IMG/VR virus record: IMGVR_UViG_3300049734_000086
Coordinates: 1 to 64,000 of that record
Reading direction: 5' to 3' (one strand)
Length of the DNA stretch: 64,000 nt
From: a virus
Positions within the stretch are counted from its first letter, which is position 1. Every line of letters starts with the position of its first letter. The translations under genes and the position numbers were made by a program. The notes below the pieces were generated by a model that did no database searches, was not told where the DNA came from, and saw nothing but the letters and a program-made list of their open reading frames with translations. Shown one piece after another: positions 35,155-61,294 of this stretch.

Positions 35155-35301
35155 GGTCCGGGTCTCCTGGGGCGTAAGGGAGAAAGCCCGGACACGATAG
35201 CACAGGTAGTGGCGATGGTCGGGGTGGGGCCCTATTGGTTGGGGATTCTAGGGGATTCTGTCCTTGGTGACCTTGTCCTGCTCATAGGGTCGGCTCCTAT
35301 G

Positions 35302-36987: not shown

Positions 36988-37145
36988 GGGGAAACAAACG
37001 GCCGTCGGGTCGAGGGTATTTAGCACTCTGGGCACTACAGGTTACTGGGCACTCCAGGAGACTTAGCACCGAAGGCACAATTTCCAGGGCTTGTTAGTAC
37101 TACTAAACTAAGAGAGCGGACGGATTCCGTGGTCCGCACCCAGGC

Positions 37146-39056: not shown

Positions 39057-39959
39057 TCAGGGCTCCTCACTCGGCGTGGGCGGGGTTTCCTCGGTGAACT
39101 GGTCGAACGGGGCTGCGATGTCCGCCCGCAACACCTCATCGACCCTGCGCGCCTCCCCTTCGATCACCAGCGGGGTGCTGGTACTCAGTGTCGCTTGGGG
39201 GATCGGTCTGGACTCCTGCAGCCGTCTGGCCAGGGAGACCAGATCGTCCATCGTCGCCTCCGCTAACGGCCGCCGGATGTTGAGGTCCACTTCGACTGGT
39301 GCGTCGAGTCCGAGCATCTTGGCCCTCCGGCTCATGATGTTCAGGGCCTGGGCGATGGAGTACGTCTCTCCCCGTTCGATGGCGGGCCACAGGTAGGTCA
39401 TCATCTTGTCGAGCCGCGTCAGGTCCAGGGCCCGGATGTCCTCGGCCAGGATGCGCTCGTACTTCCGCAAGTACGCCAACGCCTCCTGCACGTCCTGGTG
39501 CGCCGTCTTGACACTGACCCCCAGGGCCACACCGATCTCGCGGTAGTCGTACCCTGCCGCCCGGTAGTTGAGGGCCTCGACCCGGCGCTGCTCCTTGGTC
39601 AGCCGCTGGGGCTTGGCGTCGTCATGCGGGATCTTGTCGGGTTCGAGCGGCACGGCCTCTTCGACTTCCGGGAGTGGCTTGCCGAGGTCGATGCGCGGGA
39701 GCTTACCGACGAGACTGGCCTTCCCGGCCTCAGTCTGACCTTGGGGGCCGGGGCCATCAGATGGGGAAGTGTCAATGCCGTTACTCGGGGCGGGCCCTGT
39801 GGGCTCACCCGTCACACCCCCATCGTCACCGTGCGGGGGCTCGGGGTTGGTCAGGTGGTCCAGGCCGCCCTTGAACTCGCCGGGGATCTTCTTACGAGTC
39901 TTGCCTTTACGAGCGTTGGCGGCGTTGCGGCGGTGGGTGGTGGTACGGTGGCCGGGCAC
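39057..39959 (-). CDS. terS: terminase small subunit (HTH)
   Basis: ALNYRAAGYDYREIG..LGVS..TA HTH; RRAKMLGLDAP. Confidence 0.8.
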   Translation of the reverse strand: MPGHRTTTHRRNAANARKGKTRKKIPGEFKGGLDHLTNPEPPHGDDGGVTGEPTGPAPSNGIDTSPSDGPGPQGQTEAGKASLVGKLPRIDLGKPLPEVEEAVPLEPDKIPHDDAKPQRLTKEQRRVEALNYRAAGYDYREIGVALGVSVKTAHQDVQEALAYLRKYERILAEDIRALDLTRLDKMMTYLWPAIERGETYSIAQALNIMSRRAKMLGLDAPVEVDLNIRRPLAEATMDDLVSLARRLQESRPIPQATLSTSTPLVIEGEARRVDEVLRADIAAPFDQFTEETPPTPSEEP

Positions 39960-40169
39960 GGGGAATTAGGCTCCAGAATCAGGGGTCATCGACGGGTCTG
40001 GGCAGGCAGGGTAACAGGAATTCGGTGTTACCGGGTAGCCCTGGGCTGCCAGCGGGGTACTGCGGCGGGGTCTGGCAAGGGTACTGCGGGCCGGGCCAGG
40101 GAGGTCAGTTACTGGGCTCTGGGGCTTATGGCTGAGCTAGGTCCTGGCAGCCTGGAAAGTGTCTCAAAA

Positions 40170-40270
40170 TAGGACAGTCTGGCCTAGGTGGTTGGGTGTA
40201 TAATGTGGGCTTGTCTGGTCAGTCTGAGCCTTGATTGCAGCTACTGACCACGACGTGACAACTGAATCTG
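40170..40270 (+). promoter_or_regulatory. early promoter region
   Basis: TATAAT at 40199-40204 in a CG-free patch; CAGTCTGGCCTAG and ACAACTGAAT shared with the 56.9-57.0 kb region. Confidence 0.55.
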
Positions 40271-52898: not shown

Positions 52899-53172
52899 CG
52901 GCATCCCCATCATCGTGGCTGGGCGCACCCTGACCGACATCGCCAACGGAGTCGGCAGCTCGGTGGCCTTCATCGCCCGCTGCTACAAGGGACGCAGGGC
53001 CCCGAGCCTTGCCACCTACTTCGACATCGTGGACTTCACCGGCATGGACTACGCCGAGGCCCGCACGACCTTCTGCAGCTTCGCCAAGCGCACCCGGCAG
53101 ACCCCGGTGGCGCTCAAGGCGATGAAGGCCATCCGGGGCGGCAAGGCCCTGAAGTCCCAGCAGGCGGCCTGA
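52744..53172 (+). CDS. HTH DNA-binding protein with Lys/Ala-rich tail
   Basis: TLTDIANGVGSSVAFIARC..GRRAPSL (XRE-like); KTKTAK repeats. Confidence 0.7.
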   Translation: MAKTTKTKTKTAKTKTAKPKKQPKQATGPAQVKPQARARKAKAPKAPKAASNGIPIIVAGRTLTDIANGVGSSVAFIARCYKGRRAPSLATYFDIVDFTGMDYAEARTTFCSFAKRTRQTPVALKAMKAIRGGKALKSQQAA

Positions 53173-53178
53173 CCCCCC

Positions 53179-54093
53179 GTGGCCCGCACCTACAACTGGT
53201 CCTGGCCCCCCAAAGGGGTCAGGCCCGAGGCCTGGAAAGCCACCGAGACCATCTGCAAAGAGGCGATCAAGCGGAGCGGGACCACCACCTGCTCCTGCGC
53301 CTTCTCCACCGGCAAGGACTCGCTGGCGATGATGATTGCGCTCCACCACTTCTTCGAGACCGTGGTCCCCGTGTTCTGGTACCACGTGCCCAACCTCGGG
53401 TTCATCGAACGGAGCCTGGAGTACTACGAGCGGGTGTTCAAGACCCAGACGGTCAGACTGCCTCACCCGTACCGCTTCTACCACTTCTCCTACTTCCAGC
53501 TCCAGCCGCCCGACCGGATCGCGGCCATGGACTGGATCATGGCGGAGGTTCCTGATTTCACCATGGACTCCCTGTTCGGCGAGGTGCGGACCCAGTACGG
53601 CCTCGACAAGCTGGGAGGCTCGAAGATCGGGGCGATGCACGCCACCGGGATCCGGGCGGCCGACTCCCCGATCCGGGCCAGTCTCTACCGCAAGCACGGC
53701 GGGTTCGCGCCCGCTGGCCTGCTGTTCTACCCAGTGATCACCTGGAACCTCGACGACATCGAGGCGGCCTTGGACCACACCGGCCTGATGCTGCCGCCCG
53801 AGTACCGCTTCATCGGCCGCAGCTTCGACGGCATCATGCGGCGCTACACGACACCAGTGAAGGAGCATTGGCCGGAGGACTGGGTCAAGATCCTCGACGA
53901 CTTCCCGCTGGCCGACCTGGAGTTCTTCCGGGCCGAGAAGGTCACACCGCCGGAGCTGCTGAAGCCGCTCTACAAGTTCATCGGACGCGAGGGACCGAAG
54001 ATGAGCGATACTCTCCGCCGGGAGGAGACCGCACATGCAACCGACTCGACTCGCCCTGGTGACCGCCCTCGTCGCCGTCGCCCTGACCGCTAG
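53179..54093 (+). CDS. PAPS-reductase-like (PP-loop) protein
   Basis: AFSTGKDS, TGIRAADS..R, YPVITW, GRSFDG. Confidence 0.8.
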   Translation: MARTYNWSWPPKGVRPEAWKATETICKEAIKRSGTTTCSCAFSTGKDSLAMMIALHHFFETVVPVFWYHVPNLGFIERSLEYYERVFKTQTVRLPHPYRFYHFSYFQLQPPDRIAAMDWIMAEVPDFTMDSLFGEVRTQYGLDKLGGSKIGAMHATGIRAADSPIRASLYRKHGGFAPAGLLFYPVITWNLDDIEAALDHTGLMLPPEYRFIGRSFDGIMRRYTTPVKEHWPEDWVKILDDFPLADLEFFRAEKVTPPELLKPLYKFIGREGPKMSDTLRREETAHATDSTRPGDRPRRRRPDR

Positions 54094-54982
54094 AGGCCAC
54101 ACGCAAGTCCGCGAACTCGAACTGCTGGTGGTGATGGACGGGGAGTTCACCCAGCGCATCGCCCCCACCACGCCCCAGCAGTGGCTCGACGCCCTGGTGA
54201 CGGAGTCCAATGTCTGGTGGGAGAGGGACCTGGGCATCCGGCTCAAGGTCGTCCGCCTCGACGCCTTTCCCGACCCGGCGACCGACCCGTTCACGGCGGC
54301 CACGGACAACCCACAGGGCACGCTCGACGAGATCTCGGCCTACGGCAATGCAGTCAGTACCCCCCGAGACGCCGCGCATCTGTTCACCGGCCGCGCGATG
54401 ATGTACGGCGGCTACACCTACGTCGGGGTGACGTGCAAGCACCCGGCGTTCAGTTATGGCTGGTCGCAGTTGGGGTTCTGGGGCTACAACTGGACGATTG
54501 CCGTGGCGAGCGTGGAGCTGGCCCACCAGTTGGCGGGTGTCTACTACGACAACATCCCGAGCTGTGACGGGGCCTTGTTGGGCAAAGGGCCAGCGCCGGA
54601 GGACTACCACCAGTACTGGTTCTGCGCCGCAGCCAAGGCCGACATCGACGCCCACTTGGCGGCCAACCCCCCATGTCTGACCACCGAGGGCGGACCCCCG
54701 CCCACCGACACGCAGTCCCCAGTGGTCAGTATCATCGAGCCGTCGGGCAATAGGATCCCGGCGGGCCCGACCTTCACCATCTCGGCCCAGGCCACCGACA
54801 ATGTCGCCGTGGCGCGGGTGGACATGGCGGTCAATGGCGTGCTGGCGTGTACCGACGACCTGTCGCCCTACGCCTGCACCGCCCCGCAGAACGCGAAGAA
54901 CAAGAACTACCGGATCGAGGTCCGCGCCTACGACACGGCGGGGAACGTCGGGACGGCCAGTAAGACGGTACGAGCACGATGA
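54035..54982 (+). CDS. secreted reprolysin-like pseudo-metalloprotease with Ig-like domain
   Basis: Signal peptide; RDAAHLFTG, G.TYVG..C; zinc motif altered to VELAHQLAGVYY; DT..P.V, ATDNVAV..V, AYDTAGN. Confidence 0.7.
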   Translation: MQPTRLALVTALVAVALTARGHTQVRELELLVVMDGEFTQRIAPTTPQQWLDALVTESNVWWERDLGIRLKVVRLDAFPDPATDPFTAATDNPQGTLDEISAYGNAVSTPRDAAHLFTGRAMMYGGYTYVGVTCKHPAFSYGWSQLGFWGYNWTIAVASVELAHQLAGVYYDNIPSCDGALLGKGPAPEDYHQYWFCAAAKADIDAHLAANPPCLTTEGGPPPTDTQSPVVSIIEPSGNRIPAGPTFTISAQATDNVAVARVDMAVNGVLACTDDLSPYACTAPQNAKNKNYRIEVRAYDTAGNVGTASKTVRAR

Positions 54983-55021
54983 GTCGGATGACCCGAATGA
55001 TCAAGGAGACGCGCAACCCCT

Positions 55022-55531
55022 ATGGCGAAGAAACCCCTACCCCCGATGCGGCACATGGTGCGGACCAGCGGCCCTGGTGCCCGCCCGATGACTAAGCCGA
55101 AGTCCGGCATCCAGAGCAAAGCGCAGAAGCAGGCCGAGGAGGACCTGGAGATGACGCCGCTGGAACTGGTCCAGCAGGCCGAGGTCGAACTGGCCAGTAT
55201 CGCCGCCAGCCGGAACGACCCGAAGAACGTCGAGTGGCGCAAGGCGCGGATGAAGTCGCAGCAGCAGATGGCCGACGCCAACAATACCGAGTACTGGTGC
55301 TGCGTGTGCTTCCAGAGCGAGGAGCAGAAACTGGACTTCCTGAAGCAGTCTGGCCTCCTCCGCCACGACGAGGACAAGTACTTCACCGCCCAGGAAGTCG
55401 TCGACGCATGGAACGAGGGGAGGAGCCGCAAGCCCCTGAAGTTGACAGCGGACAGTCGTGGGCACCATACTCTGCCGGTGAACCGGCGATGGTCGCGCTT
55501 CGCCATGCCCATTGAGGGGCCTGGGGAATAG
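55022..55531 (+). CDS. hypothetical protein, PAPS-reductase module
   Basis: TEYWCCVCFQS.EQK..FL; AAGGAG RBS. Confidence 0.7.
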   Translation: MAKKPLPPMRHMVRTSGPGARPMTKPKSGIQSKAQKQAEEDLEMTPLELVQQAEVELASIAASRNDPKNVEWRKARMKSQQQMADANNTEYWCCVCFQSEEQKLDFLKQSGLLRHDEDKYFTAQEVVDAWNEGRSRKPLKLTADSRGHHTLPVNRRWSRFAMPIEGPGE

Positions 55532-55596
55532 GTCGCGTCAAGGACCCAGCCGGTCAGAATGCTCACCCCGGAGCCAAGCGGGGAGGGAGACAGAAT

Positions 55597-55794
55597 ATGC
55601 AGTACGCATTCACCGGCAAAAATCTCGTGTCCATGGCGTGTGTCCCGGCGACGGGCGGGGGCCGTGGTGGCCGTCGGCGTCGAGCGGGTCGTCAACCGAA
55701 TGGCCGTCCCCTCCTGCGTGGGGCTGCGGCTCGGAGAAGTAACGCGGCGTTCCGGCGTCGACTTCTGAGACTCCAGGAGGCGGGGATCCGCTAA
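55597..55794 (+). CDS. Arg/Gly-rich small protein with 14-aa leader
   Basis: MQYAFTGKNLVSMA-CVPATGGGRGGRRRR; GGAGA RBS. Confidence 0.65.
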   Translation: MQYAFTGKNLVSMACVPATGGGRGGRRRRAGRQPNGRPLLRGAAARRSNAAFRRRLLRLQEAGIR

Positions 55795-55847
55795 CGGACT
55801 GAGGGCAGTCGGCAGTCGGCAACGGTCGACGGCCGCAGTCGGCGTAC

Positions 55848-55893
55848 AAGAAAAAACCCCTAACAGGTTCTAAGGGCCTGTTAGGGGTTTCTT
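55848..55893. terminator. bidirectional intrinsic terminator
   Basis: AAACCCCTAACAGG/CCTGTTAGGGGTTT stem with A/T tails between convergent units. Confidence 0.85.
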
Positions 55894-56086
55894 ACTCTGA
55901 GGGTTCAGCCAGTGGTCTACACTGCACTGGCCCTATAATCCTGCAGCATGTCTCAGGGCCCTGCAGTGGCCAGTACCAGAGGAATAGCAGGCCACAGAAG
56001 TTAATGGCCTGCCACTGCTCCACAGCTACTGTGATTGGGGATCCTAGGTTGGTCCTGTAGGTCAAGAGCTTAGGCTCGATTCTCAT
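55892..56086 (-). CDS. small protein in CG-free island
   Basis: ATGA-coupled; ends at terminator. Confidence 0.5.
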   Translation of the reverse strand: MRIEPKLLTYRTNLGSPITVAVEQWQAINFCGLLFLWYWPLQGPETCCRIIGPVQCRPLAEPSE

Positions 56087-56205
56087 CTCAGCACCTTGAT
56101 TGCTGGCATGTGCTTAGCCTGCCACTGGTCTACAGCCTGCCTTGCCCCAGTTGCCAGCATGGCAGCCAGGGCAACTAGGACAAGGCCCAGTGTTAGAGTT
56201 TTCAT
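56083..56205 (-). CDS. small hydrophobic peptide (40 aa), not in ORF track
   Basis: MKTLTLGLVLVALAAMLATGARQAVDQWQAKHMPAIKVLR; GGGAG RBS. Confidence 0.6.
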   Translation of the reverse strand: MKTLTLGLVLVALAAMLATGARQAVDQWQAKHMPAIKVLR

Positions 56206-56224
56206 TCTGTTCTCCCTTGGGTTG

Positions 56225-56276
56225 GTCAGACTGACCTAGCTGGGTTCTCTGCCTTTGGTACTGCCCCTGAGAGTGC
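56225..56276. repeat. inverted repeat, left arm
   Basis: 56249-56276 is the exact reverse complement of 56851-56878; 56225-56237 matches 56888-56900. Confidence 0.95.
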
Positions 56277-56458
56277 AGGTTAACTACTCTGACTCTGTGC
56301 CCCTGATCTCTAGCCAGTGGGTTGTACTGGCAGCCTTGATTGCCTCTGCAGGCCTTGCCATGGTTAGCAAGTCTGGTTGTTCGTCTGCTCTGTAGCACAG
56401 GCCACAGTAGCATCTAAGGGCCTGTAGTCTGGCCTTGGGGGTTCTCGACTGCAGCTTG

Positions 56459-56824
56459 CTACTTGAGCTTTGCTGTGATCTCAACATTGTCCAAGGTCCA
56501 GACTTGCCCTTTGTGACAAGGCAGGTTGGCCAGTGCTCTGTTGATGGCTGCAACCTGGTTAGCTGCTAGCTGCTTTGGCTGGAGGTAGTAGTTGTCCCCA
56601 TACTGGGAGGCAGCCTTGAGATCTGAGGCAAGTTCGGCACCCTGAAAAATCATAGAGTGCTTCTTCTTCCCCTTCTCCCCTGCCTTGGTTGCCTCTGTCC
56701 TAGCTGGCACCTTGCCCTTGGCTTGGACTGCCTTGCCCTTGCCCTTGGCTTGGACTGCCTTGACTGCCTTGCCCTTGCCCTTGCCCTTGTTCGACACTGC
56801 CTTAACTGGATTCTGCTTAGCCAT
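56459..56824 (-). CDS. Lys-rich putative nucleic-acid-binding protein
   Basis: KGKGKAVQA repeats; AGGAG RBS. Confidence 0.75.
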   Translation of the reverse strand: MAKQNPVKAVSNKGKGKGKAVKAVQAKGKGKAVQAKGKVPARTEATKAGEKGKKKHSMIFQGAELASDLKAASQYGDNYYLQPKQLAANQVAAINRALANLPCHKGQVWTLDNVEITAKLK

Positions 56825-56850
56825 TGGTCTCTACTCCTGAAATCTGAAAA

Positions 56851-56900
56851 GCACTCTCAGGGGCAGTACCAAAGGCAGGAACCTGTAAGGTCAGTCTGAC
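56851..56900. repeat. inverted repeat, right arm
   Basis: Partner of 56225-56276. Confidence 0.95.
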
Positions 56901-56906
56901 TTAGGT

Positions 56907-56975
56907 ATTCAGTTGTAAAGAGCATAGGCAGCCTACCATAGGCCTAGGAGGTCAGATGTTAAATCCATGTTAAAT
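56907..56975 (-). promoter_or_regulatory. promoter plus boxA-like element
   Basis: ATTTAACAT twice; TTAACA-16-TATGGT; TGCTCTTTACAACTGAAT. Confidence 0.5.
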
Positions 56976-57024
56976 GTGGCCTAGGTGGTCAGACTGTGCA
57001 GTCTGGCCTAGCTGGCCAGTTCTC

Positions 57025-57300
57025 GGCAGCCAGGGCCAGGGCCAGACATGGCAGCCAGGGCCCTAGGATGGCCCTAGGATGGCCAGGGCCAGGACACTAG
57101 CAGTCTGGCCAGGGAGGCAGCCAGGGCCCAAGGGCCAGGGCCAGGGCCCAAGGGCCAGGGCCAGGGCCCAAGGGCCAGGGCCCAAGGGCCAGGGCCAGGG
57201 CCAGGGCCAGGGCCAGGGAGGCAGGGAGGCAGGGAGGCACCATTGATCAGAGTTGGCAGCCAGGGCCAGGGCCAGGGCAGTAGTAGCAGTAGCAGGGCCC
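57025..57300 (+). repeat. (GGGCCA)n tandem array with GGGCCCAA and GGGAGGCA variants
   Basis: Directly visible; more than 20 GGG tracts. Confidence 0.95.
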
Positions 57301-57580
57301 TGAGACGCCCGTCACCACGCCCCACCGTCCCGCTGACGGCCAGGGTACGATTCGTCAATCGGGCAGCCAGGACCGCAGCCAGGACCGCCCGCGCACGCCC
57401 CAGACCCAAGCCCTACCGCTAGTGGTCCGGGCCGCTAAACCCCCCTACATTGTGGGACTTCCCACGGTCGGGCTTTCCCTCATACACTGCCGCTCGTTCC
57501 CATGCGACGGTCTCTCAATCGTCACGCTGGCCGCCCCACCTCTGCCCGGTCAGCGCCGCCCCTTCCCTGGAGCTACGTAC

Positions 57581-58135
57581 ATGCCGCGACACGCTTCGAC
57601 CAACGCCGACGACATCGACGCTCGGCGATCTCAGTACGCACCCGAGGACTTCATCATCCCGAGCAAGGACCATAAGGGCGACTCGGTGCGCGTCTGGAAC
57701 CGGATCCAACCGGGCCACGACCGCGCCGTGGCCGTCATCGTCGGCAGTAAGCGGTTCCCCTTCAAGACCCCTGGTGACTGCGTGCGCTGGTGCATCCATC
57801 GTGGGCTCAAGACCCTGGAGCAGATGGAGCCGGTCCCCAGCGTCACCCAGCAGCTCGACGCGATGATGGGGGCGCTGCGTGACGAGGAGTTCCACCAGGA
57901 GTTCCAGACCTTCATCCAGCACGCGCAGTCGGTGATCCAGCGCCACGTGACCGAGGGGTCGCACGGAGAGGCCCGGCGGCTCATCGCCACGCTCAAGGCG
58001 GAGGTCCTGAAGATGCCCAAGGGCTACTGGCGCGAGAAGTACCTCACGGCGATCCAGAGTCAGTTCAAGCACATCCTCGACGAGAAGCGGGCGCGCGTCC
58101 ACCTGCTCCGCGCCGTCGACGAGGACGAGTCGTGA
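57581..58135 (+). CDS. putative DNA-binding regulator
   Basis: GGAG RBS; FKTPGDCVRWCI.RGL (RHH-like, weak). Confidence 0.55.
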   Translation: MPRHASTNADDIDARRSQYAPEDFIIPSKDHKGDSVRVWNRIQPGHDRAVAVIVGSKRFPFKTPGDCVRWCIHRGLKTLEQMEPVPSVTQQLDAMMGALRDEEFHQEFQTFIQHAQSVIQRHVTEGSHGEARRLIATLKAEVLKMPKGYWREKYLTAIQSQFKHILDEKRARVHLLRAVDEDES

Positions 58136-58272
58136 ACTGGCTCCTCCTCTTTGCCTTCCTCGGTCTGATCTTCCAGGCCGTCAGTCCACTGGCGGTGATC
58201 CAGGACATGCTCATCCTGCTGGCGGCGGTGCTGCTGGTGCTGGCGGTGAGTGGGAGGAAGCCATGGGCGTGA
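58132..58272 (+). CDS. small membrane protein, not in ORF track
   Basis: GTGA-coupled; two hydrophobic segments. Confidence 0.5.
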   Translation: MNWLLLFAFLGLIFQAVSPLAVIQDMLILLAAVLLVLAVSGRKPWA

Positions 58273-58499
58273 GGAACAAGGCCGAATGGGCGGCCGAGAT
58301 GAACGGGGTCGCCGCCATTGTCCATCAGGCGATTCGTGGCGGGATGCGACTGGGACTGAGCCGGGAAGCGGCGGCGCTGGGGGCCCAGATCGGGGTCCTC
58401 AGCTTCATGCGCGTGGATGGCGTGAACGAGGACGATGTGATTCGGGAGGCCAAGAAGGCAGTGCCGGTCGGGCCTCCCGGACGGGTGACGCAGGTATGA
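58263..58499 (+). CDS. hypothetical protein
   Basis: GGAGG RBS. Confidence 0.6.
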   Translation: MGVRNKAEWAAEMNGVAAIVHQAIRGGMRLGLSREAAALGAQIGVLSFMRVDGVNEDDVIREAKKAVPVGPPGRVTQV

Positions 58500-58515
58500 C
58501 CGGCGGCGACGGCCG

Positions 58516-58743
58516 ATGACCACGGTGACCACGGAGACCAGTATGACTGCCGATGAAGCACGCAACGCAACGATCGAGGCCCTGGTGCGGGAGGTGGATT
58601 ACCTGCTCCCCAACGACTATCCGGCGTGGCTCGAACTCGCCCGTCGCGCCGTTACCACTGAGCGCAAGATCGAGAGCATCGAGGCCCGGGTCACGGCGGC
58701 CCTGACCGAGCTGGTGGATGCCGGGTACGGCCACGGTGTCTGA
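58516..58743 (+). CDS. hypothetical protein
   Basis: Operon context. Confidence 0.55.
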   Translation: MTTVTTETSMTADEARNATIEALVREVDYLLPNDYPAWLELARRAVTTERKIESIEARVTAALTELVDAGYGHGV

Positions 58744-58745
58744 CC

Positions 58746-60458
58746 GTGCGTAGTCGCCAAGTCTATGCCCGCTACCAGCGGCCCAGGGAACCTCTCTTCC
58801 CGCCGCCCAACCTCCTCGGAGCGCCCCAGCGGTTCGCCGAGTGGCGGGCCTTCCAGGACCAAGCCATCTGGGACGCCAGTGAGGCCGACGCCCGCTTCGT
58901 CATGCAGGTCGTGCCCACAGGCGCGGGGAAGTCGCTCATCTACACGATGCTGGCCGTGCTCCTCAAGGCCCGCACCATGGTGCTGACCCGGACCAAGGCC
59001 CTGCAGGACCAACTGACGCGGGACTTCGCCTCCATCGGCCTCAAGTCCATCAAGGGCATGAACGCCTACGTCTGCAACGCCATGCAGCCCGGTGGGGAAC
59101 TCTACGGCATCTTCGGCCAGCAGCAGATCAAGGCCGGGCACATCATCGGCTGCGACGAGGGGCCGTGTCGTGTGGGGGCCCACTGCACACTGAAATCCGG
59201 GGGGTGCGACTACTACGATGATGTCGAGCGGGTGAAGCAGGCAGCGTTGGGGGTCTCCAACTACACCTACTGGATGCACCAGCACAAACACGGCAAGGGA
59301 CTCGGCAAGTACGATCTGTTGGTCCTGGACGAAGCCCACGACGCGCCCGACGCCCTCTCCGAGTTCCTGACCGTGAGCCTGGAGGCGTGGCAGTTGGCCA
59401 AGATGGGAGCCCAGCCCCTCGACGGGGACGCCGACTACGACCAGTGGGCGCAGTGGGCCGGGCACTACTGGGTGAAGATCGCGGGCAAGGCCGAGCAACT
59501 GGCCATGGAGATCAGACAGGCCCACTCCGAGCGCCGCAGGGTCAACATGGCCGACGTGGGGGAAGCCAGGATCCTGGGCCAGCTCTCGACCATCCTGGAC
59601 ACCATCCGCAAGATGGACAGCACGTGGGTCTGCTACACCAGGACCGAGCCGAAGAAGCAGTGGGTGTTCACGCCCGCATGGCCCGCGCCGTGGGCCGAGA
59701 AGTCCCTGTTCCTGGGCATCCCCCGGATCATCCTGACCTCGGCGACCGTGCGCCCCAAGACGGCTCACTACCTGGGCATCCAGGACAAGGACCTGCACCT
59801 GACCGAGTACCCGGCGATCTTCCCGGCAGGCCGCCGTCCCGTGGTCCACATCCCCACGGCCCGGGTCGTCCACACCTGGGAGCACACCGCCCAGCGCAGG
59901 TGGCTGGCGCGCATCGACCAGATCCTTGCCGCGCGCCCGGATCGCAAGGGCATCATCCACACGGTGTCCTACGCGCGGGCCAAGCAAATCTACTTGAACT
60001 CGGAGCACCGGGAGCGCATGATTACGCACTCGACGGAAGGCACCCGGCTCGCCATCACCAAATTCAAGCAGGCCGACCAGGACTCCGGCAAGGTCCTGGT
60101 GAGCCCAAGTGTGACCACGGGGTACGACTTCCCGTACGAGGAATGCGAGTTTCAGATCATCGTCAAGATCCCGTTCCCCGACTCGCGGGATCCGGTCCTC
60201 AAGGCCAGACAGGCCAGCGATGCGGAGTACGGGATGTATCAGACCCTGCAGACCCTGGTCCAGGAGTGCGGACGGGGGATGCGGGCCGAGGACGACTACT
60301 GCGAGACCTTCATCATCGACGATCTGGTCAAGTGGGCCGTCTGGCGGCACAAGCATCTGGTGCCCGAATGGTTCCTGGGCACCCTGAAAACCGTGGAGGT
60401 GATTCCGGCACCGCCCCCACGGATCAACCGGAAGCGTGCCGGTGACACTGAGGAGTGA
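58746..60458 (+). CDS. DinG/XPD-like SF2 helicase
   Basis: PTGAGKS, ALQDQL, four Cys (putative Fe-S), LDEAH, TSAT, TGYDFP, QECGRGMR. Confidence 0.88.
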   Translation: MRSRQVYARYQRPREPLFPPPNLLGAPQRFAEWRAFQDQAIWDASEADARFVMQVVPTGAGKSLIYTMLAVLLKARTMVLTRTKALQDQLTRDFASIGLKSIKGMNAYVCNAMQPGGELYGIFGQQQIKAGHIIGCDEGPCRVGAHCTLKSGGCDYYDDVERVKQAALGVSNYTYWMHQHKHGKGLGKYDLLVLDEAHDAPDALSEFLTVSLEAWQLAKMGAQPLDGDADYDQWAQWAGHYWVKIAGKAEQLAMEIRQAHSERRRVNMADVGEARILGQLSTILDTIRKMDSTWVCYTRTEPKKQWVFTPAWPAPWAEKSLFLGIPRIILTSATVRPKTAHYLGIQDKDLHLTEYPAIFPAGRRPVVHIPTARVVHTWEHTAQRRWLARIDQILAARPDRKGIIHTVSYARAKQIYLNSEHRERMITHSTEGTRLAITKFKQADQDSGKVLVSPSVTTGYDFPYEECEFQIIVKIPFPDSRDPVLKARQASDAEYGMYQTLQTLVQECGRGMRAEDDYCETFIIDDLVKWAVWRHKHLVPEWFLGTLKTVEVIPAPPPRINRKRAGDTEE

Positions 60459-60463
60459 ATCGC

Positions 60464-61294
60464 ATGGCGAAAAATGAGAAGCGCGTCTCCCTGCGGCCCG
60501 AGGATGCCGTCCAGGGCGGGCTGATCGAAGACGTGGATGTCACGTTCAAGGCAGCGGGGTTTCAGTTGTTCGACTACAACGGCAAGGCCGATCCGTGGGT
60601 CTGCCTCCGCATCGACATGGAGGACAGTGAAGGGGATCTGCACGAGCAGTTCTTCTCGGCGGCCAACCCCGATCACTTCGCGCCCTCCAGCGATGGGGAC
60701 TACATCGTCTCGACCGGCGAGAAGGGATCACTGAACAAGGGCTCGAATTACATCGAGTTCATGACCTCGCTGATCAACGCGGGATTCCCCTCCCCGGCGT
60801 TGGACGAGGGGATCAGTGCCATCGTGGGGACCAAGGTCCACGTGGTCCGCAGGCCCGCGACCGTGCGCCGGGGGATCATCAATCAGGCCGGTGGGGAGAA
60901 CCAGCGCGAGAAGACTGTGTTGGAAGTGAGCAAGATCCTGGAGCTGCCCGAGGCCTTGAGGGGGAAGGGTGCGAAGGCGGCGAAGGGGGGTACCAAGACC
61001 ACGACGGCTACCGCGAGTGGGAAGACCAACGGCAAGGCCAAGCAGGTCGAGGAGAGCGAGCTGGACGAGGACGATGTGACGTTGGCCGAGTACGTCAAGG
61101 AGCTGCTGGCGGAGGCGGACGGTGAGGACATCAAGGTGACCGATCTGGTCCAGAAGGTCTTCGCCGGGTACCCGAAGGGGGAGAACAAGAAGGCCGCCAC
61201 CAAGCGGGTGATCAAGGAGGACTTCCTGCAGGCGGCGGCGTCGGCTGGGTACTTCCTCTACGCTGACGGGGAAGTGTCGGCGGTCCCGGAGTAA
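60464..61294 (+). CDS. replication/recombination protein (possible ssDNA-binding)
   Basis: Beta-rich N-terminus, acidic C-terminus; between helicase and nuclease. Confidence 0.4.
   Translation: MAKNEKRVSLRPEDAVQGGLIEDVDVTFKAAGFQLFDYNGKADPWVCLRIDMEDSEGDLHEQFFSAANPDHFAPSSDGDYIVSTGEKGSLNKGSNYIEFMTSLINAGFPSPALDEGISAIVGTKVHVVRRPATVRRGIINQAGGENQREKTVLEVSKILELPEALRGKGAKAAKGGTKTTTATASGKTNGKAKQVEESELDEDDVTLAEYVKELLAEADGEDIKVTDLVQKVFAGYPKGENKKAATKRVIKEDFLQAAASAGYFLYADGEVSAVPE

Follow-up and report, generated by a model that had tools for sequence, protein, structure and literature searches.

What could remove one dinucleotide almost completely from a single short segment of a phage genome that elsewhere carries it at normal frequency? 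The question is raised by an island at positions 55844-57305 of the window analyzed here, namely the 64,000 nucleotides that make up bases 1-64000 of the 74,430-bp IMG/VR virus record IMGVR_UViG_3300049734_000086, the ends of which overlap by 24 bp. Genome-wide, GC content is 65.4% and the dinucleotide 5'-CG-3' occurs at a normal observed-to-expected ratio (o/e) of 0.94, corresponding to approximately 7,400 CGs; from 1.46 kb of this genome, however, approximately 110 CGs are missing, the loss is tied to one promoter type, and only CG in the context TCG is spared. Overall, what lies here is a genuine regulatory module with native wiring, on whose sequence selection acts against CG; such selection is the likely cause of its composition.

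A sharply bounded depletion of CG

The segment in question is described by the following entry:

55844-57305, no strand: CG-free island; observed CG 6, expected 118; every survivor is TCG on the + strand; GC content 57%

Calculated from the island's own base composition, the expected number of CGs is 118.3, and the six observed represent an o/e of 0.05 (Poisson P approximately 2e-42). An earlier examination of the letters of the window, hereafter the sequence-only reading, had listed six CGs, each in the context TCG, in a region above 50% GC for which roughly 100 would be expected; the recount returned the identical list (between 55843 and 57306, CG occurs only at 56077, 56382, 56446, 56635, 56792, and 57024), and the expectation given above is in keeping with that estimate. 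Equally well founded was its description of sharp bounds and CG-rich flanks, as both edges take the form of a step: at the left edge, 15 CGs are present in the outer 100 bp and none in the first 100 bp inside, while at the right edge 14 are present in the outer 100 bp and none in the last 100 bp inside, where a GC content of 67% would lead one to expect 10. Beyond the low level of CG, the dinucleotide signature of the island is one of elevated TG/CA and CT/AG, and CTAG, already described as common here, does accumulate, with 12 of the 53 genomic copies falling in a segment that constitutes 2% of the genome.

Boundaries of this kind might be produced by an assembly chimera or by a contaminant such as a synthetic CpG-free vector or eukaryotic DNA, and the dinucleotide signature does recall vertebrate or engineered CpG-free DNA, synthetic CpG-free plasmids being all that a literature search returned. 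The junctions are, however, bridged without difference in independent soil runs: contigs of one run match 53466-57119 and 57241-57562 with zero differences, a contig of another spans 55562-55868, and assembly breaks fall only within the tandem array at 57120-57240. Because both island edges are bridged by independent contigs, the island is not a chimera, a possibility for which the sequence-only reading had left room. In addition, six DNA runs contain 92-98% of sampled words, the segment has bacterial ribosome-binding sites (RBSs), a terminator, an ATGA overlap, and motifs in common with a promoter at 40.2 kb, and homologues of the 121-aa island protein exist in other metagenomes, such that the probability of an artifact is practically negligible. 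An inversion of the segment between its repeats was considered as well and rejected for want of support, no strand-changing joint having been reported in four runs. As a separate observation, one soil run holds a variant contig with five differences in 38 bp (56377-56414), within the spacer between the 121-aa gene and arm A of the inverted repeat listed below; none of the five creates a CG, and their number is too small for testing selection.

The route of CG removal and the exemption of TCG

Insight into how CG was lost comes from the three open reading frames (ORFs) of the island, in which three CGs are found versus 54 predicted from their amino acids with native codon usage. All eight arginine codons in these ORFs are AGR (AGA or AGG), as compared with 11% genome-wide, and codons ending in C make up 2 of 78 where G follows versus 60 of 147 otherwise. 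The scarcity of C-ending codons before G, together with the AGR arginines, indicates that the purge was aimed at CG itself, both in synonymous sites and at codon junctions. With respect to the mutational route, GC content at third codon positions (GC3) is 0.66, 0.56, and 0.63 in the three ORFs; a model in which CG is lost by transition (NCG to NCA, and NNC to NNT where G follows) predicts 0.68-0.69, whereas native codons merely filtered for CG predict 0.74-0.80 and thus provide a poorer fit. The drop in GC content from 65% to 54-57% likewise matches the size expected from one transition per lost CG. Judged by these features, the island reads as native sequence stripped of CG by the cheapest mutational route, and not as DNA of unrelated composition.

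The CGs that survive are informative in their own right. Six of six are TCG, which has a probability of 1.4e-4 when the + strand is considered and of 0.005 when TCG on either strand is allowed; CG flanked by T (TCG/CGA) is tolerated, and this exemption holds under test in the island. Tetramer counts are zero for each of GCGC, CCGG, CGCG, and ACGT and three for TCGA, the last being the commonest surviving CG context, and residual-CG context among relatives displays no trend that would account for the exemption. Genome-wide, TCGA (o/e 2.26) and GATC (1.93) are strongly over-represented, and CGCG (0.44) and GCGC (0.53) are under-represented.

Hexamer palindromes that lack CG behave in the opposite manner, occurring at 19.8 per kb in the island versus 6.0 per kb elsewhere (examples include GGGCCC, CCTAGG, TGGCCA, and CTGCAG). 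Since CG-less palindromes are three times denser, the purge does not represent general restriction-site avoidance, and the idea of a segment purged of restriction sites, if taken in general, fails on this point.

A second CG-free zone and a common promoter type

Within 74 kb, one further zone is significantly devoid of CG, and it is related to the island through the following features, in which promoter calls here and below are predictions, those of the leftward promoter and of the terminator coming from a consensus scan plus inspection by eye:

40092-40251, no strand: second CG-free zone; no CG where 10.9 are expected; flanked by leftward structural and rightward early genes
40181-40204, + strand: master early promoter (predicted), GGCCTAGGTGGT-TGGG-TG-TATAAT; grammar and spacing as at 56941-56964
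56941-56964, + strand: rightward promoter of the island (predicted), GGCCTAGGAGGT-CAGA-TG-TTAAAT; overlaps the leftward promoter
56967-56978, + strand: second TGTTAAAT-GTGG copy
56978-56989, + strand: further GGCCTAGGTGGT copy

The absence of CG from 40092-40251 has a probability of approximately 2e-5, and no further CG-free window of 160 bp exists in 74 kb. Smaller CG-poor patches had been reported by the sequence-only reading at this site and at 35.2 and 37.0 kb, and it is the 40.2-kb patch that stands; those at 35220-35291 and 37011-37117 consist of CG-free gaps of 47-71 bp in which 2-5 CGs are expected, lie within chance, and are unremarkable given that four complete GC-rich relatives have gaps of up to 85 bp. 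The 24-nt pattern GGCCTAGGWGGT-N4-TG-TWWAAT is matched in 74 kb at 40181-40204 and 56941-56964 only, even when three mismatches are permitted, and both matches fall in the genome's only two significant CG-free zones. Additional words common to the island and the 40.2-kb promoter, namely AGCCTTGATTGC, GGTCAGTCTGA, and CAGTCTGGCCTAG, further agree with the claim that the two regions have motifs in common; outside this genome, a search of viral contigs returned no match to the pattern, and the records of five relatives contain no exact copy.

The 40.2-kb zone covers approximately -119 to +40 around its TATAAT promoter, such that part of it is probably untranscribed. Its extent, which is that of a promoter complex, favors reading of CG on DNA over reading on RNA, and favors a tie to initiation or early elongation by the host polymerase. 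Taken together, the common 24-nt promoter grammar, a family of GCAGCCAGG words that extends over the right edge of the island, and a codon usage of the transition type bear out the impression that the island is native, and suggest that native origin with local selection is more likely than import.

Anatomy of the island

The island is a self-contained module, consisting of a leftward three-gene operon, a bidirectional terminator, overlapping divergent promoters, and a rightward leader rich in repeats:

55851-55893, no strand: bidirectional intrinsic-terminator hairpin (predicted); 17-nt arms, A-run before, T-run after
55892-56086, - strand: 64-aa ORF; hydrophobic core, Cys-rich tail; its start overlaps the 40-aa ORF stop (ATGA)
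55950-55964 and 57292-57306, no strand: 15-nt perfect inverted repeat, GTCTCAGGGCCCTGC / GCAGGGCCCTGAGAC
56083-56205, - strand: 40-aa ORF behind AAGGGAGAA; N-terminal hydrophobic segment
56225-56276, no strand: long inverted repeat, arm A; perfect over 28 nt and matching at 79% over a further 24 nt; palindrome GGTCAGACTGACC as cap
56459-56824, - strand: 121-aa ORF behind AGGAG; first gene of the leftward operon
56851-56900, no strand: arm B of the long inverted repeat; predicted to pair with arm A on the leftward RNA
56935-56962, - strand: leftward sigma-70-like promoter (predicted); TTAACA, 16 nt, TATGGT
56999-57305, + strand: CG-free part of the leader; GGCCCTAGGAT in 2.4 copies, GCCAGG in 15 copies (57120-57218), CAGGGAGG in 3.2 copies, four GGCAGCCAGGG boxes; 72% GC
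57306-57580, + strand: remaining leader; normal CG; additional GCAGCCAGG boxes at 57363 and 57375
57581-58135, + strand: first gene past the island; 184 aa; no family match

The terminator hairpin begins 7 bp inside the left island edge and, as predicted, can stop transcription arriving from either side, namely from the + strand genes upstream and from the leftward operon. First in that operon is the gene for the 121-aa protein, in which a Lys/Gly/Ala-rich disordered N-terminal tail precedes a conserved C-terminal domain of approximately 65 aa. The family has eight known members, all metagenomic, with the seven homologues (P0002 and P0123-P0128) displaying the same plan; no match was obtained by tblastn in 50,697 phage records, and a family scan of viral contigs and metagenome contigs revealed no related loci. 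AlphaFold models of the protein are poor to moderate (pLDDT 47 and 57, with approximately 70 for the C-terminal domain), a Foldseek comparison of the model with PDB and BFVD returned nothing below E = 0.4, and a protein atlas search provided low-confidence leads only. None of the island ORFs has a PHROG, Pfam, NCBIfam, or PADLOC match, and a homologue search with the 64-aa ORF was empty.

The 40-aa and 64-aa products are, by their sequences, membrane-like peptides, and the three island proteins are poor in arginine and rich in glutamine, tryptophan, and cysteine. A motif, AV[DE]QWQA, is common to the two short ORFs, is encoded by a 20-nt direct repeat of 90% identity, and is located after the hydrophobic segment in one and before it in the other; the two may be partial paralogues.

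On the leftward RNA, the predicted stem formed by arms A and B encloses the RBS and the entire 121-aa ORF, and the minimum free energy and centroid folds agree in pairing 13 + 33 bp (z = -4.9). RNase III-type long-range processing stems are duplexes of at least 20 bp formed by the flanks of a gene on one transcript, and such a duplex is predicted here; in these folds the A/B duplex looks like a processing or stabilizing stem. Taken together, the seven homologues with a conserved C-terminal domain, the RBSs, the ATGA overlap, and the long-range stem indicate that the island genes are real. As for the 15-nt inverted repeat, its right arm stops precisely where the island stops on the right, and its left arm is located inside the 64-aa ORF.

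Because the upstream + strand operon ends at the predicted hairpin, a rightward promoter within the island is needed for the genes that follow, the first of which probably starts at the ATG at 57581, behind GGAG. The rightward leader between promoter and gene (56971-57580) also has GGCAGCCAGG boxes, and its predicted fold is no better than that of shuffled sequences (z = -1.5). The word GCAGCCAGG occurs in eight copies in the 74-kb genome, all on the + strand, and seven of these cluster at 56162-57383: five inside the island, where GCC or GCA follows, and two just outside it, where ACCG follows. The family therefore spans the right island edge, with the CG-containing version outside, and, given its location, could represent a protein-binding box or an RNA element of the rightward leader.

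Distribution among relatives

Close relatives of the phage were found neither in phage nor in viral-contig or metagenome collections, including when the helicase served as a single query. More distant comparisons covered the loci of 112 relatives, within 10 kb of the helicase gene, and the whole of four complete GC-rich relatives. No comparable island exists in any of the 112 loci or anywhere in the four complete genomes, and the distant relatives (33-45% helicase identity) are without it; the sequence-only reading had proposed to look for the same depletion in related phages, and it is absent from all 116. Three members of the helicase family with 55-56% GC (L057, L073, and L075) are CG-poor over the whole fetched locus (o/e 0.33, 0.45, and 0.46, respectively), which indicates that genome-wide CG avoidance exists in parts of the helicase group. 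One candidate analogue was rejected: in a Thorarchaeota-binned contig with a related helicase (L088), 620 bp without CG (770-1391) consist of tandem small ORFs of hexamer repeats. The two ORFs of that stretch are built from GGTCAT/GGTCAA/GGTCAG repeats, and are reminiscent of the island's GCCAGG array.

Proposed selection against a CG-reading activity

The explanation toward which we lean, tentatively and at somewhat short of an even chance, is that the island is a native early or regulatory module kept CG-free by selection against a CG-reading activity on DNA. According to this model, two overlapping divergent promoters at approximately 56935-56990 would drive the module. The leftward promoter would direct transcription of the three-gene operon, encoding the Lys-rich 121-aa protein on an mRNA closed by a stem of approximately 46 bp, followed by the two membrane-like peptides, as far as 55851-55893, and the rightward promoter would restart transcription of the + strand genes through the repeat-rich leader. 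CG on duplex DNA would be read by some activity, whether a CG-addressed mark, a CG-binding protein, or a CG-dependent nuclease, that would disturb the first, host-polymerase-driven use of the genome, and selection on the DNA sequence would have cleared CG via transitions to TG/CA in synonymous sites, codon junctions, and non-coding DNA alike. The leftward operon is the only complete transcription unit in CG-free DNA, and it and both promoters of the 24-nt type, being CG-free, would work whatever the state of the CG reader. Retention of approximately 7,400 CGs elsewhere implies that such a reader is harmless to most of the genome, or is kept away from it in time or space.

The sequence-only reading had offered two alternatives, a first-injected segment and host-polymerase-read DNA kept free of a CG-linked mark. 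The latter, in the form of freedom from some CG-linked feature, fits the anatomy better. Part of that proposal is in keeping with the sequence, the other CG-free zone being that of the master early promoter; the part concerning modification is not supported, as no CG-marking enzyme is recognized. It was possible to detect neither a CG reader nor a CG writer in the 74-kb record: PF00145, PF01555, PF01702, and PF12851 are without a match at E <= 1, and no C5 or N4/N6 (PF01555) methylase, TET/JBP enzyme, or DpdA/TGT protein is recognizable in the genome. The only methylases are a Dam-like enzyme (PF05869) and a class I enzyme of unassigned target, although most early proteins belong to no family. 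Whereas context-specific DNA modification systems include an encoded writer, none is apparent here. In Pbunavirus, a hypermodified thymine in TG constitutes a dinucleotide-addressed mark without recognizable modification genes (PMC12191111), and for this reason the lack of a known writer is weak evidence. The likeness to Pbunavirus is that of a two-base address for a feature of phage DNA in a genome without a known modification gene, where such a mark can go unnoticed; the differences are that the mark resides on T in TG and that no unmarked island is described there (PMC12191111), whereas the candidate address here is CG and any mark on it is hypothetical.

Several further points weigh against selection by a CG reader. 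Early timing is assumed from promoter shape only, and metatranscriptome contigs from two runs fall on the island and its flanks alike, one of these runs having no contig between 56833 and 60427; such contigs show neither level, ends, nor strand, and may include carried-over DNA. Codons ending in A are slightly more frequent in the island ORFs than under the transition model, and it is unclear how a nuclease as reader could be squared with the CGs tolerated elsewhere. Finally, absence from the 112 loci and the four complete relatives indicates that the island is not a family feature, which leaves room for a recent import.

A more specific version of DNA-level reading, which we regard as doubtful, would treat CG as the address of a mark or bound protein that blocks initiation or passage of the host RNA polymerase. 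The CG-free edges at 40251 and 57306 would then be gates, acting much as terminators do for the immediate-early transcripts of lambda: on arrival, only the two CG-free zones would be readable, and the gates would be opened by something that the CG-free operon encodes, possibly the Lys-rich protein. If true, this would point to an undescribed class of dinucleotide-reading factors.

Weighing the alternatives

The main mechanistic rival to selection by a CG reader is entry of the type known as first-step transfer (FST), in which the island would belong to the first-entering DNA and would lack the CG sites (other than TCG) of a host or phage nuclease, its products serving to protect or admit the remainder. 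Phage T5 resists restriction, CRISPR, and Ssp systems if their sites are absent from its FST region, a block of small unassigned genes in which the pre-early genes form two inversely oriented transcription units (PMC10644984), and the flanking non-coding DNA contains tandem repeats, palindromes, and long-range inverted repeats, all three of which are found in the island (Davison, 2020; 10.1101/866236). The shortness of the block and its opposed transcription units are points of likeness, and freedom from particular short sites, which in T5 decides survival of nuclease attack, may be another (PMC10644984; 10.1101/866236). Regions of the T5 type adjoin non-coding DNA in which conserved repeats, inverted repeats, and DnaA boxes form an injection stop signal; the comparison here extends to tandem arrays and long-range inverted repeats, both of which are found in the island. 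In Autographiviridae, it is likewise the place of a motif in the first-injected region, and not its total count, that decides restriction, and counter-defence genes are frequent in the early region, which is variable (PMC12455610); the motif there is, nonetheless, a single one of Type I, located at an end of the genome that is known, while the island lacks all CG words but TCG. The sharp edges of the island would also suit an entry boundary. In T5, on the other hand, the FST block extends over 8-10 kb at the leading end of the packaged genome, within the terminal repeat, and what it lacks are specific 6-bp sites, whereas the island is 1.46 kb, very short for an entry stage, is internal in the assembly, and is without a dinucleotide, TCG being spared, while CG-less palindromes are enriched. 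Homologues of A1, A2, or dmp were not found, the island ORFs being without a PHROG or Pfam match. Furthermore, the record shows only the 24-bp end overlap, molecule ends are not visible in contigs, and the island is located between + strand gene blocks, 16 kb from the junction of the terS-like and terL genes with the early promoter. Its position in the assembly does not favor first-step transfer, which we consider unlikely. A low probability is likewise assigned to import of a moron, that is, a promoter-gene-terminator cassette from a lineage avoiding CG genome-wide, whose CG poverty would be a compositional legacy. Morons of lambdoid and other tailed phages are autonomous promoter-gene-terminator units between operons, with deviant composition and small membrane-type products. 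The island is similar in its own predicted promoter and terminator, its place between operons, and its small membrane-like products; its opposite orientation, lower GC content, deviant codon usage, sharp edges, and absence from every relative examined suit an import as well, as does the existence of phages in the same helicase family that are CG-poor throughout (o/e 0.33-0.46). Nevertheless, the composition is not a foreign one, as native codons from which CG is removed by transitions reproduce the deviation; the promoter grammar is that of the master early promoter, itself in a CG-free zone 16 kb away; the GCAGCCAGG word family straddles the right edge; and no donor with an o/e near 0.05 exists among the 116 relatives. 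Import would, in any case, merely shift the question of CG avoidance to the donor.

CG might also be read on RNA, such that transcripts of the island evade a CG-reading RNase or an RNA sensor, a bacterial counterpart of ZAP, which would account for the lack of CG in the operon and in 335 nt at the start of the leader. With predicted starts near 56928 and 56971, all of the island but the promoter core would be transcribed, and the long-range stem in the leftward mRNA suggests control at the level of RNA. We know of no CG-specific bacterial RNase and of no bacterial counterpart of ZAP. A precedent exists in human cytomegalovirus, in which the immediate-early 1 gene is specifically CpG-suppressed and evades ZAP (PMC7498042). 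The likeness is that a large DNA virus keeps CG low in a single early gene and retains it in its others; ZAP, however, is a vertebrate RNA-binding protein, and in the present genome promoter DNA that is probably untranscribed is CG-free too. Specifically, CG is absent from approximately 119 bp ahead of the 40.2-kb promoter, a stretch for which transcription is not predicted, and the rightward transcript continues into CG-dense sequence past 57305. CG being self-complementary, the strands are indistinguishable from sequence, and reading on RNA is, on balance, quite unlikely. Very improbable is a local hypermutation without selection, in which CG-directed deamination (for example, methylation-linked C-to-T change) would have struck the segment once. 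The composition does fit CG to TG/CA transitions, with GC content lowered from 65% to 54-57%, NCA codons and T-ending codons before G increased, and proteins poor in arginine and rich in glutamine, tryptophan, and cysteine. Against it, the ORFs are intact and translationally coupled, the sequence of the 121-aa protein is conserved, arginine is retained via AGR codons that are unreachable from CGN by one transition, and CT and AG are raised as much as TG and CA. To our knowledge, no bacterial or phage mutational process is confined to such sharp bounds.

Relation to known avoidance and significance

Specific restriction sites are known to be avoided locally in the early regions of phages (T5 and T7-like phages), but a literature search returned no phage report of such a near-total, sharply bounded purge of one dinucleotide. 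Restriction-site avoidance in phages is similar in that short words are lost under selection by DNA-cutting systems; it is genome-wide and concerns mostly 4-6 bp Type II palindromes (Rusinov et al., 2018; PMC6286503), whereas the island is local, concerns a dinucleotide, and has other palindromes enriched in place of the general under-representation that marks avoidance of Type II sites. The implied factor would recognize a two-base step and one neighboring base, and would do so in this part of the genome alone; it could be a defence nuclease, a DNA mark, or a way of timing transcription, in each case of a new kind. The extreme contrast with the flanks and the small size of the module (two promoters, three genes, one terminator) make the island a convenient test object.

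Genomic context and further observations

Leftward genes, including those encoding the major head protein, portal, and large terminase, fill 1-39.9 kb of the genome, and rightward genes from 40.4 kb on encode UvrD-like and DinG/Rad3-like helicases, a PAPS-reductase-like protein, an ERCC4 nuclease, two methylases, and a family A DNA polymerase with an N-terminal UDG-like domain. The runs containing the sequence are soil metagenomes. When 53000-60500 was compared with phages by blastn, the sole match was a low-complexity one, restricted to the repeat array, in Aeromonas phage BUCT551. Cumulative GC skew rises monotonically and indicates neither an origin nor an end, a scan of the window for RNA genes returned no tRNA and no Rfam family, and signs of lysogeny were not noticed among the scanned proteins, which represent part of the ORFs.

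Other observations concern individual genes. The family A DNA polymerase (record 70211-72967) carries its UDG-superfamily N-terminal domain with E = 8e-27, and upstream of its gene are located the Dam-like methylase (67365-67994) and the class I methylase (65977-66621), the latter a weak match to the PADLOC model mad2. The protein encoded at 54035-54982 combines a signal-peptide-like start, a reprolysin-like metallopeptidase domain, and a bacterial Ig domain; its gene is placed among early and replication genes, directly after the PAPS-reductase-like gene (53179-54093). Adjoining the large terminase gene, 39057-39959 (- strand) encodes a 300-aa protein with a match to PHROG 645 (labelled 'Rnase E') and a weak one to a sigma-factor PHROG; this protein may be the small terminase, in which case the packaging signal would fall near the 40.1-kb CG-free zone. 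Lastly, the word GGTCAGTCT (reverse complement AGACTGACC) recurs right before - strand start codons (28430, 32040, and others), for example as GGAGACTGACCATG, and its position suggests that part of the island's GTCAGWCTGAC palindrome may be the phage's usual translation-start spacer.

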